From IMG/VR virus record IMGVR_UViG_2778261591_000021: DNA of 30,329 nucleotides; one strand, 5' to 3'. Positions 12,015-17,221 of the stretch are shown here, piece after piece (position 1 is the first letter of the stretch; every line of letters starts with the position of its first letter). Origin of the DNA: a virus (taxonomy: Duplodnaviria; Heunggongvirae; Uroviricota; Caudoviricetes). The notes under the pieces were generated by a model. The model searched no databases, had not been told where the DNA came from, and was given only the letters and a program-made list of their open reading frames with translations. A program made the position numbers and the translations under genes.

Positions 12015-12307
12015 TCCTGTTCACTGGCCTCTTTGGCCATCTTCAAATACTGTTCAGGGCAATGCGCCATAACGCGCTGAAACAGTTCCAGCGCCAGATT
12101 GCGTTGCCCCTCATTAAATGCCATTGCCATAGCGTCCATCGGTGAGATAGCGGAAAACACACGGCCTTTCTCCAGCACCGACCAGACAACGCGACGCCCC
12201 TGTTCACTGCTCATGACAAAGCGAATGTCATCAATTTCACGCTGCGCCATGTCACGTTGCTTACGGGCGTTTTCTTCTTTCAGTTGATCGTCTTCGTAAT
12301 CTGTCAT
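12011..12307 (-). CDS. hypothetical protein, 98 aa
   Basis: Coupled ORF between portal and scaffold genes. Confidence 0.4.
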   Translation of the reverse strand: MTDYEDDQLKEENARKQRDMAQREIDDIRFVMSSEQGRRVVWSVLEKGRVFSAISPMDAMAMAFNEGQRNLALELFQRVMAHCPEQYLKMAKEASEQE

Positions 12308-13983
12308 TGTGATTGCCCACCCTGACCACTAACTGCATTCGCCATAGCTGACAAAACACTCGGATCCGAAGTTTTAGCTTCGCTTAGTGTCTTGGCACCC
12401 TGTGCCGCCGCCATCCCCATCGCCATCATTTGTTGCTGCTGTTGCTGCTGTGCCCGTTGCTGGCGAGCCTGCTCAACCTGTTCCTGCGGAACAATGACGG
12501 TTGGAGACACTCCGGACATATCAGCGAATGCATCGATCGCCTGATCAACGTTGAGTTTGTCGAGAGCTTCTGGTTTCGCTTGCGCAAGTTGACCAATGAA
12601 GTTAACCGTGGACGCCAGACTGGACAGGCCGATAGACTTCTGCGCCTGAGCCATGACGGAAATGTATTCGACCTTCAGGGGCATACCTTCCATCGCGTCA
12701 GGCGGTGGCGGCAGCATGTTTTTACGCACCATCATCGAGAAAGCGCGGTCAATGAGAGGGTTAAGACATTCGTCGTTCAGACGCTCCAGAACCGGCCCCA
12801 ACATCAGAAGCTTTTCTTCTTTCATTTCGATCACTGCTTCAACAGGCATCGAGCGGGTATTGATGTTCTGCAACATCATGAACAGATCGACAAAGTAGGC
12901 GCTGTTAATGATTTGGCGGGTGTCCTGAATGTCTGCTACCAGATCTGCTGTACTGGGGTTAACCAGATAAGCAGGCCTGAAACCATCCTGACCAGTAATC
13001 TGATCGATATACGTGATGTCGCCAGGAAGAAGAGAGGCGCGCTGATTCTTGAGGGAAGTCGGAGCAACCATCGGCGGATTGGTGGCTTTATCAATCAACT
13101 GCGACTTGCGCTTCTGGAGAAGCTGCAATGCCTTAACAGGTCCAAGCGCCAGCATACCCGGGCATGATGATCCATAAACATCTTCGCCGTTAACTTCCCA
13201 GCGCGGAGCCATAATTGGAAACTCATCGAATCCGGACTCACGCAACAACTTGTCGTTATCGCCACCAACCTCGTAATAAACCGATTTGAATGGCTTGTTC
13301 TTGCTATCCAGCTTCGATGTATCGCGGTCAATGTTCGGGTAAACCGAATGCATCACTTCAATCCACTTCTCGTAGGTGCCGCTTTCCCACATGCTTTTTA
13401 CGGATTCGCTGACGTTATTTAGTCCGAACTCCTGAACAAGCTGACGAACAGTCATAGAGAACTTGCGAAAACAGGTGTCCACACTGCCACGAGGTGAGTT
13501 AGCCAGGTAGTAACTTCCTATCGGGAATGGCATTGTACGAATGATGTCCTCGTCATCCTCCAGCACCGCCATTGCGCCAGTGCTGTATGTGCCGAGGCTT
13601 CCGTATAACTGCGGCAGCGACTGATAGAGATTCGACTTATTGAACATATCGTTCATGCGGTTCTGAACTGCCTCAAGCCACAACTTAACAGGGCCATAAT
13701 CCATCATTTCAGGATCTGGCGTAGCCAGGCGAAACCACGGACGCGCGGGGCTTGTGATGCCTGACATCATGCCGCTGGCGAGAGTGCGCGCCGCCATAGT
13801 CCCGGTCGAATCAATAATGCGTGTATTGCGCCGATCGTTACGGTTGGCCTCAGAAGTCAGAAAGCGGGAACCACGCGGGTTGATGTAATCACTCAACTCG
13901 CGCCAGTGCGGCTCGAACGACTGACGCTCGCTTTCAAGTTGTGCGAACTGTTTGTTCAATCGCTCTTTAGTTGTTTCCGCCAT
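12304..13983 (-). CDS. portal (head-tail connector) protein, 559 aa
   Basis: Size and position between terminase and scaffold; podovirus-type portal. Confidence 0.7.
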   Translation of the reverse strand: MAETTKERLNKQFAQLESERQSFEPHWRELSDYINPRGSRFLTSEANRNDRRNTRIIDSTGTMAARTLASGMMSGITSPARPWFRLATPDPEMMDYGPVKLWLEAVQNRMNDMFNKSNLYQSLPQLYGSLGTYSTGAMAVLEDDEDIIRTMPFPIGSYYLANSPRGSVDTCFRKFSMTVRQLVQEFGLNNVSESVKSMWESGTYEKWIEVMHSVYPNIDRDTSKLDSKNKPFKSVYYEVGGDNDKLLRESGFDEFPIMAPRWEVNGEDVYGSSCPGMLALGPVKALQLLQKRKSQLIDKATNPPMVAPTSLKNQRASLLPGDITYIDQITGQDGFRPAYLVNPSTADLVADIQDTRQIINSAYFVDLFMMLQNINTRSMPVEAVIEMKEEKLLMLGPVLERLNDECLNPLIDRAFSMMVRKNMLPPPPDAMEGMPLKVEYISVMAQAQKSIGLSSLASTVNFIGQLAQAKPEALDKLNVDQAIDAFADMSGVSPTVIVPQEQVEQARQQRAQQQQQQQMMAMGMAAAQGAKTLSEAKTSDPSVLSAMANAVSGQGGQSQ

Positions 13984-13997
13984 TTCAATGACTCCGG

Positions 13998-14204
13998 TTA
14001 CTGACCAAGCAGCGTTTTACCGCTGGTATTAGCGGTTGATGTGTCGCCCTGAGAACCGGTAAGCAGCGTAGAACTACGACCAGCAGCAGCGCGACGGCGA
14101 CGAGTTTCTTCGTCGCGGGCATCAACAACGGCGGCATCCTGCTCCTGTGGTGCTGCCTGAACTTCTGGTGTTGCAGGCACTGATGGTGAGCTACCCATGC
14201 ACAT
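13998..14204 (-). CDS. small hypothetical protein, 68 aa
   Basis: ATG with GGAG 10 nt upstream; first gene of the structural operon after the accessory island. Low-complexity sequence. Confidence 0.3.
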   Translation of the reverse strand: MCMGSSPSVPATPEVQAAPQEQDAAVVDARDEETRRRRAAAGRSSTLLTGSQGDTSTANTSGKTLLGQ

Positions 14205-14272
14205 ATCAATGACTCCGTACGCAATTAAATTATTACCAATTTAACCACATATGATTTATTTATCGTAGATAG

Positions 14273-14309
14273 TTGACATTTAACGCACAAATTATTACCT
14301 TTCAGGTAA
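14273..14309 (+). promoter_or_regulatory. promoter-like TTGACA followed by a TTACC-N5-GGTAA operator-like palindrome
   Basis: TTGACA at 14273-14278; TTACCTTTCAGGTAA at 14295-14309. Same layout as the early promoter at 25090-25132. Points toward the structured region and tRNA. Confidence 0.45.
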
Positions 14310-14329
14310 CCAAAGAGTTCATTCCGGTT

Positions 14330-14631
14330 ACTAACCTGACTGGCTTGTCGTTAAATTGAACAGGTGGAGTGAGCTTTTATTTTGAGCAGTACGGCGTATG
14401 GCACATGCGCCGATAGCGGTCTGGATACGTTTAAGGGGCACCCTCCCTTGCTCGGGCAAACGAACCAGGTAGCCGGAATGTGCAAGTCGAGCGGTTTTAT
14501 TCCGCGCACGGGGATTCACCATCCCGGCGATTCGGTGTGACGCCTCGGAAGAGACGAGGGTACAACGATGAGAGCATTTATGGAGCCGCGACAAAGTGTG
14601 GCGCCTTAACAGGCTAAGTGCTCTCAGCGTT
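14330..14631 (+). other. GC-rich, hairpin-dense non-coding region upstream of the tRNA (candidate structured RNA or tRNA leader)
   Basis: No convincing ORF on either strand. Multiple perfect local hairpins, for example CCTCG-gaagaga-CGAGG and CGGAAT...ATTCCG. Lies between a promoter and the tRNA. Confidence 0.25.
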
Positions 14632-14708
14632 GTGGCATTAGCTCAGTTGGACAGAGCAACCGCCTTCTAAGCGGTTGGTCGCAGGTTCGAATCCTGCATG
14701 CCACGCCA
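14632..14708 (+). tRNA. tRNA-Arg (anticodon TCT, reads AGA)
   Basis: Full cloverleaf: 7-bp acceptor stem GTGGCAT/ATGCCAC, D-arm GCTC/GAGC, anticodon stem ACCGC/GCGGT with loop CTTCTAA, T-arm GCAGG-TTCGAAT-CCTGC, discriminator G and encoded CCA. Resembles but is not identical to an enterobacterial argU-type tRNA as recalled from memory. Confidence 0.85.
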
Positions 14709-14751
14709 GAATCACGCCTAAGGACCGTGATGCCAGAAGTTCCAGGGGCTT

Positions 14752-14795
14752 GGCGGTGATGGTTTCCCTTGAAGGACTATCACCGCCCTTTTTAC
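14752..14795 (+). terminator. rho-independent terminator downstream of the tRNA
   Basis: GGCGGTGAT...ATCACCGCC stem followed by CTTTTTA. Confidence 0.55.
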
Positions 14796-14870
14796 AGCAG
14801 GACGCCATTGCGATGACTTCATGCTGTAAACCAGTACAGCCACGGAAGGCATAACTCATTGCTTCCAGTT

Positions 14871-14896
14871 CGCCCGGTTCGCCGGGCATTTTTTTG
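14871..14896 (+). terminator. rho-independent terminator
   Basis: GCCCGG-ttcg-CCGGGC stem followed by ATTTTTTT. Confidence 0.65.
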
Positions 14897-14900
14897 ATTG

Positions 14901-14929
14901 ATGACCGCAAATTACCTTAAAGGTATAAT
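14901..14929 (+). promoter_or_regulatory. promoter-like element with a perfect -10 TATAAT (14924-14929) overlapped by an operator-like palindrome
   Basis: Palindrome TTACCTTAAAGGTAT at 14912-14926; a possible -35 ATGACC lies 17 bp upstream of the -10. Sits immediately before the moron ORF. Confidence 0.4.
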
Positions 14930-14930
14930 C

Positions 14931-15749
14931 ATGAAAAACTTCAAGGTAATTAGCATGTTTGAATCGTTCAAAGAGCTGTTTTTATCTACTGCCAATACTG
15001 CCGTGAATCGAGCCAAAAACCCTGTGCTTGGTGCTTTTGTTATGTCCTGGTGCGCCTTCAACTGGAAATCAATTCTTTATCTATTTTTTAGCAAATCAAA
15101 CATAATAGATAAAATTTCATATATCTCAGATAACAGCACATGGAAAACTGTTATGTTTTATCCATGCTTATCTGTAATTGCTATCTGCTGCCTATTACCA
15201 TGGGTAAACAATATCATTAACGTATGGCAAGCAAAGCCTCTTGATAATAATGACTCAATCGAAAATCACCTGAAGGCAAGAAAAATCCAGCGTGAAACAA
15301 GACTGCAGAGGTTATTGGCTAAAAAAGATGTTACATACGACAAAGTTAAGACTGGCGCGGAAAAAGACATCCAAGAGATGAAAGAAGAGATTATTCGATC
15401 AAAGAATAGTATGGGGGAATTGACTGCCGAGTTGAAAGCTAAAGATGACGAATTGAGATCCGCCAGTGCACAGTTAGCAGCTCTAAATCATTCATTAAAA
15501 GAGATATCGGAAACTCTTGGAAGAATGAATGAGGCATATAAGACCCTCCAAAATGATTTCGACGAATACAAACTCAAATACCCTGAAAAATCTCAAATAA
15601 AAAGCCTTGCACTTGGCAACGGCCAAACAATTAGCAACGTTTTGGAGCAACACAACTTATCCGGATTAAAATCTGGTAAGCCAAACGTTTTTAATAACTT
15701 TGGTGTTCTATCTGGATTATCAGGTTTCGAGGATAAAAATAAAGACTAA
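14931..15749 (+). CDS. AT-rich accessory (moron) protein, 272 aa: two predicted TM helices plus a long coiled-coil domain; function unknown
   Basis: Opposite strand to all flanking structural genes and visibly AT-rich relative to them. ATG at 14931 has AAAGG upstream; the track ORF starts at TTG 14898. Hydrophobic segments are VLGAFVMSWCAFNWKSILYLFF and VMFYPCLSVIAICCLLPWV; heptad-like charged region from about residue 100 to 220. Confidence 0.6.
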   Translation: MKNFKVISMFESFKELFLSTANTAVNRAKNPVLGAFVMSWCAFNWKSILYLFFSKSNIIDKISYISDNSTWKTVMFYPCLSVIAICCLLPWVNNIINVWQAKPLDNNDSIENHLKARKIQRETRLQRLLAKKDVTYDKVKTGAEKDIQEMKEEIIRSKNSMGELTAELKAKDDELRSASAQLAALNHSLKEISETLGRMNEAYKTLQNDFDEYKLKYPEKSQIKSLALGNGQTISNVLEQHNLSGLKSGKPNVFNNFGVLSGLSGFEDKNKD

Positions 15750-17221
15750 GCATATGGATCGTACTCGGTAAGCGCCTTGCCTTGCTGGTTCTGCTGCCCG
15801 GGAAGTCGCAGGCGCTTTGACACCGGGAAAGCAAACGTCAGCAGTAGCGCATCGCCTTTACCAGGCGAACGCCCAAGTCGTTCTTTGATATCTTCCTTCG
15901 GTTCGATAACGATTTTACCGTCCACGCGAACTTTGTACTCTGCCGCCGACAGATCGTCCGCTGTTTCCTGGTCATCCAGCATCCCGCCCAACCTCAGCCA
16001 TGTCTTGCATGAGTTGAACATCTCCCCGCGCTTGTTAAGCATCTGCGGGTCAGTGGACGCACCGCCGAACGGAACAAGTTGCCATGTACGCCCCCAGCCA
16101 TCACCGATTGACTTCAAACCGGTTCCGTAACCGAAGTCGATGAACACCGCGTCAGCCTGATACTGGTCTTCAAAGTCAGCGATACGCTTCGCCATAATCA
16201 GATCGTCGGTAGTCTTGTTGCCAGTCCATAGCACCTTACTATGCAACCCCTGCCGCAGGTATATCACCGCGTCATCAACGCCTGAATATGCCGGGTCAAC
16301 ACCGATTATCACCGGAGCATGTGCCACCTGCGCAGCGGTTACCACCCGTTTCATTGCCTCATCAGTAAGACCGGTAGGGATAAACTGCAATTCAGATGCA
16401 TCAGGGAATATGCCGCGCACACGGATTTTAACGAAGTCGCTGTCTTCCCCGTAGTCATCAACCCATTTCTGCAACTGCTGTTTGTTAGTACCTTCCACCG
16501 TCCGGCTGTCAATCTGCGCAGTTTTCCAGCGGTGTTTGTATTTGCGGAAACATTCGCGAAAACGCCCGGTATTACGTGTAGGGTTTCCGAACGCCACCCA
16601 GATAATCTCAGTGTCTTCGTCCGTAAGCGCACCCTCAGCAACTTCCCACACCAGATCCGCAATGTTCGACGCTTCATCGAATACCACGATGATGCGTTTG
16701 CGCTCGTTGTGTAGTCCGGCGAATGCCTCAGTGTTGTGCTCAGACCAGGGGATTGCGTCAGCTCGCCACCGCTTGTCGTGCCCAGGATCATTGCTGTACA
16801 TCGCAGTAGCGGTACAGGTAAACCAGTCTTTCGTGATAGCAAGGTTCGACCACTTGATAATTTCCGGCCAGGTCTTCGTTCGTAGCTGGTTGTCGGTGTT
16901 GGCGGTCACCACGACCTTACAATCCTCGCAAGTGGACATGCCCCAGTTGATCAGCATTGAGATGAATGCGGATTTACCAATACCATGACCAGAAGCGCGT
17001 GCCAGCATAAGCGGCTGATAGCGCGTCTCTGGATTCTGCAGGTGATCACGTATCTCTCGGAACGCATCAGCCTGCCACTGACGTGGGCCGGTAGCATGTG
17101 CCAGTTCAGTCCCCTCTTCCCCCCACGGGAACGCATATAGGGCATAGCCAAGCGGATCGTGAGTGAACCCTGCAATATCCTCGATCAACTGCTCTTCAGG
17201 AGATAACGCTGTATCTGTCAC
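15746..17221 (-). CDS. terminase large subunit, 491 aa
   Basis: Walker A-like GHGIGKS, ATPase and nuclease acidic blocks (VVFDEAS, GVDPAYSG), and position after the small subunit with overlapping stop/start. Confidence 0.9.
   Translation of the reverse strand: MTDTALSPEEQLIEDIAGFTHDPLGYALYAFPWGEEGTELAHATGPRQWQADAFREIRDHLQNPETRYQPLMLARASGHGIGKSAFISMLINWGMSTCEDCKVVVTANTDNQLRTKTWPEIIKWSNLAITKDWFTCTATAMYSNDPGHDKRWRADAIPWSEHNTEAFAGLHNERKRIIVVFDEASNIADLVWEVAEGALTDEDTEIIWVAFGNPTRNTGRFRECFRKYKHRWKTAQIDSRTVEGTNKQQLQKWVDDYGEDSDFVKIRVRGIFPDASELQFIPTGLTDEAMKRVVTAAQVAHAPVIIGVDPAYSGVDDAVIYLRQGLHSKVLWTGNKTTDDLIMAKRIADFEDQYQADAVFIDFGYGTGLKSIGDGWGRTWQLVPFGGASTDPQMLNKRGEMFNSCKTWLRLGGMLDDQETADDLSAAEYKVRVDGKIVIEPKEDIKERLGRSPGKGDALLLTFAFPVSKRLRLPGQQNQQGKALTEYDPYA

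Follow-up and report, generated by a model that had tools for sequence, protein, structure and literature searches.

A conserved pseudoknotted RNA domain in a modular accessory cassette of temperate enterobacterial phages

The 30,329-nucleotide (nt) stretch of DNA analyzed here (IMG/VR record IMGVR_UViG_2778261591_000021; hereafter the window) belongs to a phiV10/TL-2011b-like Uetakevirus, an epsilon15-like podovirus, and carries at positions 14391-14632 a noncoding element on the plus strand, inserted between minus-strand structural genes: a 68-amino-acid (aa) open reading frame (ORF) and the portal gene (12304-14204) on one side and terL (15746-17221) on the other. The 521 nt round the element are 98-99.6% identical to ZX5, TL-2011b, phiV10, and the O157 typing phages 9 and 10. 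A putative promoter and a leader precede the element, and a tRNA-Arg gene, a trailer hairpin, and an intrinsic terminator follow it. We found that 14391-14632 is the conserved pseudoknotted 5' domain (helices P1 to P5, at least one pseudoknot, and a P6 stalk) of a modular, RNA-only accessory cassette of temperate enterobacterial phages, one that is horizontally mobile between unrelated backbones. A sequence-only reading of the window had marked out 14330-14631 as a GC-rich, hairpin-dense noncoding region upstream of the tRNA. The conserved RNA starts at 14391, however, and 14330-14390 lies outside the conserved block, in a leader specific to Uetakeviruses. The term GC-rich is apt next to the immediate flanks (0.53-0.57 in the element versus 0.43 in the AT-rich promoter region just upstream and 0.34-0.40 downstream), but not next to the flanking structural genes, whose GC content is about equal.

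A noncoding element shared by unrelated phages

Copies of the element occur in phages of very different organization. The block 14391-14635 is 82-84% identical in the lambdoid phages cdtI, mEp460, 2H10, Ayreon, and Stx2c and Stx2k phages, and its first 163-188 nt are 77-81% identical in P1, P7, D6, SJ46, and RCS47; overall, core identity between unrelated backbones does not fall below 77%. More diverged copies lie in Salmonella SPN1S, Klebsiella phages, Enterobacter phage Tyrion, SopranoGao, and a phage deposited as Stenotrophomonas phage BUCT708, which is Klebsiella-like. The invariant segment GGUAGCCGGAAUGUGCAAG (14468-14486, plus strand), single-stranded or in tertiary contact, is identical in ten phage copies, an identity established before the segment served as a search anchor; the later 53-copy alignment was selected with this 19-mer. 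Exact matches to GGTAGCCGGAATGTGCAAG (14468-14486) were found at 24 loci of a one-genome-per-species collection and in at least 120 IMG/VR contigs, giving 129 distinct cores when combined. All but three of the 24 loci come from named Enterobacteriaceae genera, plus Erwinia, and one of the three exceptions, an Oscillospiraceae contig, had no other similarity beyond the 19-mer. Of 5426 complete E. coli genomes, 1836 carry the element; it occupies 1913 sites on chromosomes and 554 on plasmids, none of the matches listed having an annotated feature under it. It is absent from E. coli K-12, including the yfdP/Q/R region of CPS-53. With a third of these genomes containing it, the RNA is common; its carriers include P1-like phage-plasmids, Stx2- and cdt-converting phages, and O157 typing phages.

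Rfam 15 held no family matching the element, whether the window was scanned at gathering thresholds, positions 14100-15000 at E≤10, or 12 related loci. These scans returned only tRNA, C4, isrK, and int-alpA, all outside the element, and the Rfam scan that the sequence-only reading had suggested called only the tRNA-Arg at 14632-14708 in the window. An RNase P-processed immunity RNA of the C4 or P4 CI type was likewise rejected: RF01695 matches mEp460 (locus L002, 706-793) away from the element and has no match in the window. At that mEp460 locus, the minus strand of 706-894 carries the C4 antisense RNA and isrK by a Rha/antirepressor gene, unrelated to the element. Full-text literature searches, by sequence and by keyword, turned up no account of the RNA; a catalogue of about 10,000 candidate phage RNAs exists (PMC10690425) and may hold the element anonymously. 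We conclude that the RNA class is absent from Rfam and undescribed as far as the searchable literature shows. Annotation pipelines and Rfam families provide no cover for it and several GenBank records carry probably spurious ORFs in its place, so that many phage genomes could be corrected.

The GenBank records of ZX5, TL-2011b, phiV10, mEp460, mEp390, Ayreon, Tyrion, and JL22 annotate coding sequences for a "hypothetical protein" over the element, on either strand. Together with the position of the element between terL and the portal gene in Uetakeviruses, such annotations would favor a small protein gene or a DNA-level site (for attachment, packaging, or single-stranded DNA initiation). The earlier observation that the region lacks a credible ORF nevertheless stands: ORFs over the element have TTG or GTG starts only, no frame is open in most of the 53 homologues compared, and the conserved blocks are spaced without regard to a triplet frame, all three residues modulo 3 being evenly represented. 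Because no frame is kept open and the spacing between blocks is free modulo 3, 14391-14632 is noncoding. Given that no frame is conserved, the annotated coding sequences are probably spurious, and a small protein gene was rejected for want of a conserved open frame with triplet-respecting indels. Against a DNA-level site stand a genomic position that is completely different between phage types, a strand that agrees with local transcription in all contexts, and the tolerance of G-U pairs in the helices of the element, which fits RNA and not duplex DNA. We regard either form of this explanation as very improbable.

Covarying helices and a pseudoknot

The plus strand of 14385-14640 folds at -102.5 kcal/mol (z = -2.74 versus dinucleotide shuffles; z = -2.14 for the minus strand). 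Folding energy alone is only moderately unusual; the strong evidence is comparative. In an alignment of 53 diverse copies (A3), analyzed by mutual information and explicit pair counts, 98.4% of cells pair in the consensus structure, versus 26-46% when the 3' partners are slid. Double-sided changes affect 11 pairs (108 cells), none of 500 shuffles reached the observed covariation, and mutual information recovered the same pairs, pseudoknot PK2 included. Covariation supports P1, P2, P4, P5, P6, and PK2, all of which show compensatory changes in the comparison across homologues that the sequence-only reading had proposed, and its suggestion of a structured noncoding RNA is borne out.

The domain opens with hairpin P1 (14392-14412, plus strand, as are all features of the RNA), in which 14392-14397 pairs with 14407-14412 around the invariant loop UAUGGCACAUG; alignment columns 6-18 are G-C in 26 and A-U in 25 sequences, and columns 4-20 include a C-G swap. 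A long-range alternative pairing of the P1 3' strand proposed by RNAalifold is contradicted by this covariation. The loop sequence GCACAU (14401-14406) is perfectly complementary to the invariant AUGUGC at 14478-14483, forming a candidate pseudoknot, PK1, whose columns never vary in the alignment, so that covariation neither supports nor refutes it. The hairpin P2 (14416-14473), variable in length, is closed by 14416-14417 and 14420-14423 pairing with 14466-14469 and 14472-14473; columns 32-86 are C-G in 40 and U-A in 13 sequences, and the inner pair 39-80 also covaries. Its apical region carries a conserved YCCYUU motif, to which the lineage of the window adds a UUGC-ucgg-GCAA subhairpin at 14448-14459. 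Region P3 (14487-14510) differs in sequence and length in every lineage, and RNAalifold finds no consensus there; a variable local hairpin, GCGG-uuuuauu-CCGC at 14491-14505 in the window, is suggested by single sequences.

The hairpin P4 and pseudoknot PK2 (14511-14537) pair GGGA (14511-14514) with UCCC (14522-14525) and the loop sequence CACC (14517-14520) with GGUG (14534-14537). Double-sided changes occur in three of the four P4 pairs, and PK2 columns 147-167 are C-G in 48 and A-U in 5 sequences with zero exceptions. Hairpin P5 (14543-14559), CCUCG-GAAGAGA-CGAGG in the window, pairs 14543-14547 with 14555-14559 and shows double changes in three pairs (CCUCG/CGAGG, CCUGG/CCAGG, and GCCGG/CCGGC).

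The four local inverted repeats noticed from the window sequence (14543-14559, 14511-14525, 14448-14459, and CGGAAT 14474-14479 with ATTCCG 14499-14504) are all present, though the pairing of the last is specific to this lineage and not conserved in homologues. What had been taken for a T-arm-like element, GGGA-TTCACCA-TCCC, is P4: positions 1 and 2 of its loop vary (UUCACCA, CUCACCA, CUAACCA), and its CACC pairs with GGUG. Nor did the idea of a degenerate second tRNA hold, as neither ARAGORN nor the Rfam tRNA model finds anything in 14330-14631, even at E≤10. A ribozyme, proposed from the look of the sequence, likewise drew no match to any Rfam ribozyme model at E≤10.

A modular cassette with tRNA or tRNA-shaped cargo

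Comparison of the sequence after the core in 67 distinct loci revealed a fixed order of modules: core P1-P5, P6, the invariant junction GUUGUGG, a cargo, hairpin E, and a long-stem terminator, F. The long hairpin P6 (14563-14632) pairs CAAC plus GAUGAGAGCA (14563-14576) with UGCUCUCAGC plus GUUG (14619-14632), an inverted repeat termed I1. Its arms covary over 53 loci, the inner 10-11 pairs changing while the basal CAAC...GUUG stays all but constant, with UAAC and GUUA as variants, and cognate arms pair at a mean of -15.0 kcal/mol versus -10.7 for noncognate arms, 13% of which do better. The variable loop is 42 nt long in the window and 40-300 nt across loci, often with canonical T-arm hairpins. 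Units of P5 and P6, with or without cargo, are tandemly repeated in some loci.

The last base of P6, G14632, is base 1 of the tRNA-Arg(UCU) at 14632-14708 (called by ARAGORN; Rfam tRNA, 73.3 bits). The cargo is either such a real tRNA-Arg, as in the window, SPN1S, and a Klebsiella phage, or a tRNA-shaped RNA that starts with GUGGUGAAUGCGCAGGCUGAUGCGC and ends with GCCGGAGAUCAGCACCGGCCACCACAAC, with a highly variable middle; the core is far more conserved than the cargo behind it. Pseudo-tRNA modules downstream of P6 (loci L002, L007, L018, L085, L100, and others) have a 7-10-bp acceptor-like stem, GUUGUGGUG...CACCACAAC, and a D-like loop, GGCUGAU, complementary to a T-like loop, AUCAGC, with one lineage changing both (GCUGAC/GUUCAGC). 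They lack an anticodon arm and a canonical T-loop, and neither ARAGORN nor Rfam calls them. In three loci (L100, L127, and L131) the pseudo-tRNA insert resembles nt ~254-282 of 16S rRNA, with 89.7% identity to rrsH over 29 nt at cassette positions 399-427 of L127 (blastn), and changes in it look helix-preserving by eye (UAGGUG..CACCUA to AUGGUG..CACCAU). The insert may be an rRNA-helix mimic on a tRNA-like scaffold, judging from its sequence. Similarity to RNase P RNA was rejected, blastn giving none and only this 16S-like stretch and, in L116, a 22-mer from the rrn boxA region.

In 37 of 128 distinct contexts the element has a tRNA directly beside it, always on the same strand and in register, which either begins on the last base of P6 or ends 14 nt ahead of P1; the remaining 91 contexts have the element without any tRNA. 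The proposal that the region is a cotranscribed, processed tRNA leader is thus plausible, but the element is more than a leader, and its position downstream of a tRNA in P1 and P7 speaks against a mere leader too. A functionless element, whether a passive leader or what is left of a phage tRNA array, would account for the adjacent tRNAs and for the T-arm-like hairpins (GGUUCGAUUCC) and pseudo-tRNAs scattered through the cassette. In decaying sequence, however, a 19-nt block would not stay invariant over three unrelated backbones, nor would compensatory changes maintain five helices and a pseudoknot there; decay also sits badly with a core more conserved than the cargo that follows. We hold this explanation to be improbable.

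The trailer hairpin E (14711-14731) is AUCACG-CCUAAGGAC-CGUGAU in the window and AUCACG-CCUNAGGAC-CGUGAU in its conserved form; 51 of 128 contexts contain it, with 14 distinct variants among them, and it follows tRNA and pseudo-tRNA cargo alike. Its loop (14717-14725 and homologues) is CCUNAGG, self-complementary except for the center base and too short for pairing within the loop; from this sequence, two RNA molecules could pair through it as a kissing dimer. The long-stem intrinsic terminator F (14752-14794; terminator scan) has a GGCGGU...ACCGCC stem and a YCCYUU-containing loop followed by CUUUUU. Terminators of the GGCGGU/ACCGCC type, with covarying inner arms, are present in 52 of 128 contexts. 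In 75 of 98 loci an energy-based scan, which replaced simple counts of promoters and perfect-stem terminators that were too crude, found a terminator downstream of the element and ahead of the first same-strand gene. The window has a further intrinsic terminator, GCCCGGTTCGCCGGGC followed by T7 (14872-14895), which lies 80 nt past terminator F and is kept in many Uetakevirus loci. An inverted repeat, UUGUGGCAU/AUGCCAGAA (14630-14638/14730-14738), encloses the tRNA and hairpin E; it echoes the GUUGUGG...CCACAAC closing helix of pseudo-tRNA cargo and is not conserved in SPN1S.

The frequent presence of this terminator, the complex pseudoknotted fold with invariant joining regions, and the YCCYUU motif common to the loops of P2 and terminator F would suit a long-range attenuator or riboswitch-like sensor, in which the 5' domain senses a signal and controls terminator F. 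The 5' domain and the terminator are nevertheless 190-900 nt apart, separated by a tRNA or some other folded cargo; alternative pairing covarying with the terminator arms was not found; the P1 and P7 copies have no terminator; and no Rfam riboswitch model matched at E≤10. By inspection, the YCCYUU loops of P2 and the terminator showed no consistent complementarity or covariation with the E loop or the invariant GCAAG. A riboswitch with its expression platform at P6 was also rejected, the tRNA rather than a U-tract following P6 and the terminator coming at least 120 nt further on. Signal-dependent control of this kind seems to us a poor prospect.

A proposed processed stable RNA, or possibly a cis-acting antiterminator

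We propose that the cassette gives rise to a processed, stable structured phage RNA, like GOLLD and ROOL in kind though not homologous to them, a reading to which we assign a probability of roughly 45%. RNase P cuts at the 5' end of tRNAs during their maturation. With the tRNA starting on the last base of P6, a cut between U14631 and G14632 must free an upstream RNA that ends in the P6 stem. The unit would be transcribed from a repressor-controlled early promoter, RNase P cleavage at 14631/14632 would separate the upstream RNA from the tRNA, leaving P6 as a 3'-terminal stem, and the functional product would be the released pseudoknotted RNA of 240 nt (core) or ~320 nt (from the putative start), possibly staying associated with the 3' hairpin/terminator piece. 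This RNA would then bind a conserved host component or self-assemble in the manner of GOLLD and ROOL, with the tRNA-like modules acting as processing punctuation.

GOLLD and ROOL are phage RNAs found near tRNA islands, and tRNAs sometimes lie inside the GOLLD linker, between its conserved and less conserved domains (PMC12286853). The element resembles them in being borne by phages and prophages, beside or containing tRNAs, pseudoknotted, and without an associated protein gene, and it shares with GOLLD a multidomain layout: in the RNA of the window, a variable middle that bears the tRNA separates a conserved domain from a 3' hairpin/terminator that is conserved as well. In contrast, there is no homology in sequence or structure (Rfam models unmatched at E≤10 in the window and, for Rfam 15, in 12 related loci), the element has its hosts among Enterobacterales, whereas those of GOLLD and ROOL are Lactobacillales, rumen, or marine bacteria, and the conserved core is smaller (~170-240 nt). 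Oligomerization would be a further analogy, hinted at by the quasi-palindromic CCUNAGG loop of hairpin E.

Structured RNAs can also owe their 3' ends to an adjoining tRNA or tRNA-like module, as in tRNA punctuation and MALAT1-mascRNA-type 3'-end formation, and stable RNAs are cotranscribed with the phage T4 tRNA cluster. By analogy, RNase P would set the 3' end of the element, and P6 would protect it. The pseudo-tRNAs differ from these systems: they have neither anticodon arm nor canonical T-loop, and instead the D-like loop is complementary to the T-like loop (GCUGAU/AUCAGC).

Two genomic comparisons favor an accessory RNA gene that is self-contained. SfV and cdtI share their cI/PL region and early-left genes, yet SfV lacks the cassette, so the element is not required by this type of phage. 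In Uetakeviruses the order is portal (opposite strand), cassette with tRNA or pseudo-tRNA, a variable small gene, and terL (opposite strand), and some of these cassettes have nothing downstream to regulate: in four loci no downstream gene lies on the strand of the element, the first gene after the terminator being a minus-strand ORF of ~490 aa that corresponds to terL in annotated relatives.

Several observations weigh against a released, stable RNA. The expression, processing, and stability of any member of the family are predicted from sequence, and a consensus promoter scan of the window made no call at the putative promoter (14273-14309). In lambdoid phages the cassette always lies upstream of the early-left operon and in the same orientation, which a role in cis explains more directly. 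Finally, P1 and P7 keep only P1-P5, fused to the 5' untranslated region of ban, without P6, cargo, or terminator, and on this evidence a defined 3' end is not required for the role of the core. The order in P1-like phages is tRNA-Ile(CAU), 14 nt, core, and ban; one P1 relative (L070) also keeps P6 and a pseudo-tRNA.

Such facts invite a different explanation, namely that the RNA acts in cis, like put (or like rrn or nut sites), to modify the RNA polymerase that transcribes it, which would then resist Rho and intrinsic terminators across the untranslated cassette with its terminator and across the early genes that follow. The lambdoid order of cro (opposite strand), cI, terminator, strong operator-bearing promoter, cassette, and yfdP/Q/R-like early-left genes puts the cassette in the position of nutL or putL, ahead of a strong terminator and the early-left operon. 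The promoter ahead of the element in cdtI (TTGACA-16-CATAAT) is strong and operator-bearing, and BUCT708 has the same layout; no other early-left promoter was detected in the lambdoid hosts, in which a strong terminator separates the promoter from the first gene. N is not annotated in the lambdoid carriers, and their SfV-type relatives are reported without N, cII, and cIII (PMC3851460). Phages of the mEp series, mEp460 and mEp390 among them, were isolated as Nus-dependent (PMC11893012). Further in favor of this explanation, the first gene after terminator F is on the strand of the element in 73 of 78 loci, P1 and P7 retain the bare P1-P5 core inside the C1-controlled ban operon, and the invariant single-stranded segments are as expected of a ligand of a host machine. 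Cleavage by RNase P need not be fatal to it either, as put RNA is active after separation from the transcript (PMC9378689).

HK022 put RNAs are RNA-only processive antiterminators that suppress termination by binding the zinc-binding domain of the beta' subunit of RNA polymerase. Each put is ~70 nt long, has two stem-loops, and occurs twice per genome (putL and putR), with putL starting at the transcription start (PMC9378689). The element is comparable in lying just downstream of a PL-type promoter in lambdoid phages without N and in being a highly conserved RNA with an ACCA-containing loop and an expected contact with a host machine. It is, however, two to three times larger (170-240 nt), pseudoknotted, and single-copy, and it begins 46-80 nt or more past the putative start. 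Homology to put was rejected: HK022 putL, located from a published primer, showed no resemblance, and the covariance model of the element had no match in HK022. The same model matched the complete mEp460 genome once and the window once, each phage record showed a single place, and no second copy was found downstream of PR. The SfV and Uetakevirus comparisons also weigh against this explanation: SfV manages the same early region without the cassette, and read-through in the four Uetakevirus loci would run antisense into the convergent counterpart of terL.

With lambda nut and rrn sites the element shares an order of purine-loop hairpin (GAAGAGA in P5 versus GAAGA in lambda boxB), word resembling UGCUCUUU, and GU-rich GUUGUGG, as well as host phages from a Nus-dependent collection (PMC11893012); no N protein accompanies it. 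The boxA-like UGCUCUUU is frequent in P6 3' arms, which favors a nut-like role, but it is paired, covaries with its partner, and is absent in several lineages (the window has UGCUCUCA), and a reading of the P6 3' arm as a conserved boxA was dropped, the word covarying away. One lambdoid variant, L116, bears on the same question: ~130-150 nt past the invariant 19-mer, P6 is replaced by an insertion with 22 nt that match the 16S-23S spacer of E. coli rrn at 95%. Within that match lies UGCUCUUUAACAA, which we take to be the rrn boxA. The window itself showed no significant similarity to the rrnH locus (leader and 16S-23S spacer) by blastn. On balance, we consider antitermination in cis the main rival explanation, less likely than a processed stable RNA.

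Were the cassette to yield a stable RNA, as we favor, it would offer a tractable enterobacterial counterpart of the tRNA-linked phage RNAs GOLLD and ROOL; were the cis model true, it would represent a second RNA-only antitermination mechanism. A broader formulation, which we put forward as doubtful, is a new class of large RNA in which the 5' domain and the 3' hairpin/terminator flank tRNA-shaped scaffolds with a real tRNA or swappable inserts, one of these a mimic of 16S rRNA nt ~254-282. Such RNAs would be either a natural "tRNA-scaffold" platform that RNase P releases and that fills the cell, early in infection, with regulatory RNAs or decoys, or a second class of RNA-only processive antiterminators, unrelated to the first in structure. 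The cassette bears in any case on early-gene expression in N-less lambdoid phages, on the retention of tRNAs by phages, and on pseudo-tRNAs as processing signals or decoys.

Promoter, leader, and the neighboring gene slot

The sequence-only reading had placed the element after a promoter. The -35 hexamer TTGACA (14273-14278) is there and is followed after a 17-nt spacer by a weak -10, TACCTT (14296-14301), so that the site (14273-14309, plus strand) is putative only. An operator-like palindrome, TTACC-tttca-GGTAA (14295-14309), overlaps this -10, and in alignments the -35 and the palindrome are kept in SPN1S and a Klebsiella phage. A palindrome half-site, ATTATTACC, lies at 14230-14238.

The leader that follows (14310-14390, plus strand) is conserved within Uetakeviruses only and absent from the lambdoid and P1-type copies. 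Uetakeviruses carry a further P6-type hairpin module ahead of the core, intact in the Klebsiella and Tyrion relatives (CACAACAUGAAAGCGCA...GGAGUGCGCUUCCAGGUGUG) and degenerate in the window, where it corresponds to 14330-14390.

Downstream of the cassette, a plus-strand ORF (14898-15749) of 283 aa, or 272 aa from the ATG at 14932, has a GC content of 0.34-0.40 and its own promoter-like site (14901-14929). A second palindrome, TTACC-N5-GGTAT (14914-14928), overlaps the -10 of this site, and one repressor may, on the strength of the two palindromes, control both the element and the 272/283-aa ORF as adjacent or divergent units. In other Uetakeviruses the slot of the 283-aa ORF holds unrelated small genes (DUF2829 and hypothetical proteins of 123-292 aa), and it looks like a moron hotspot beside the RNA cassette.

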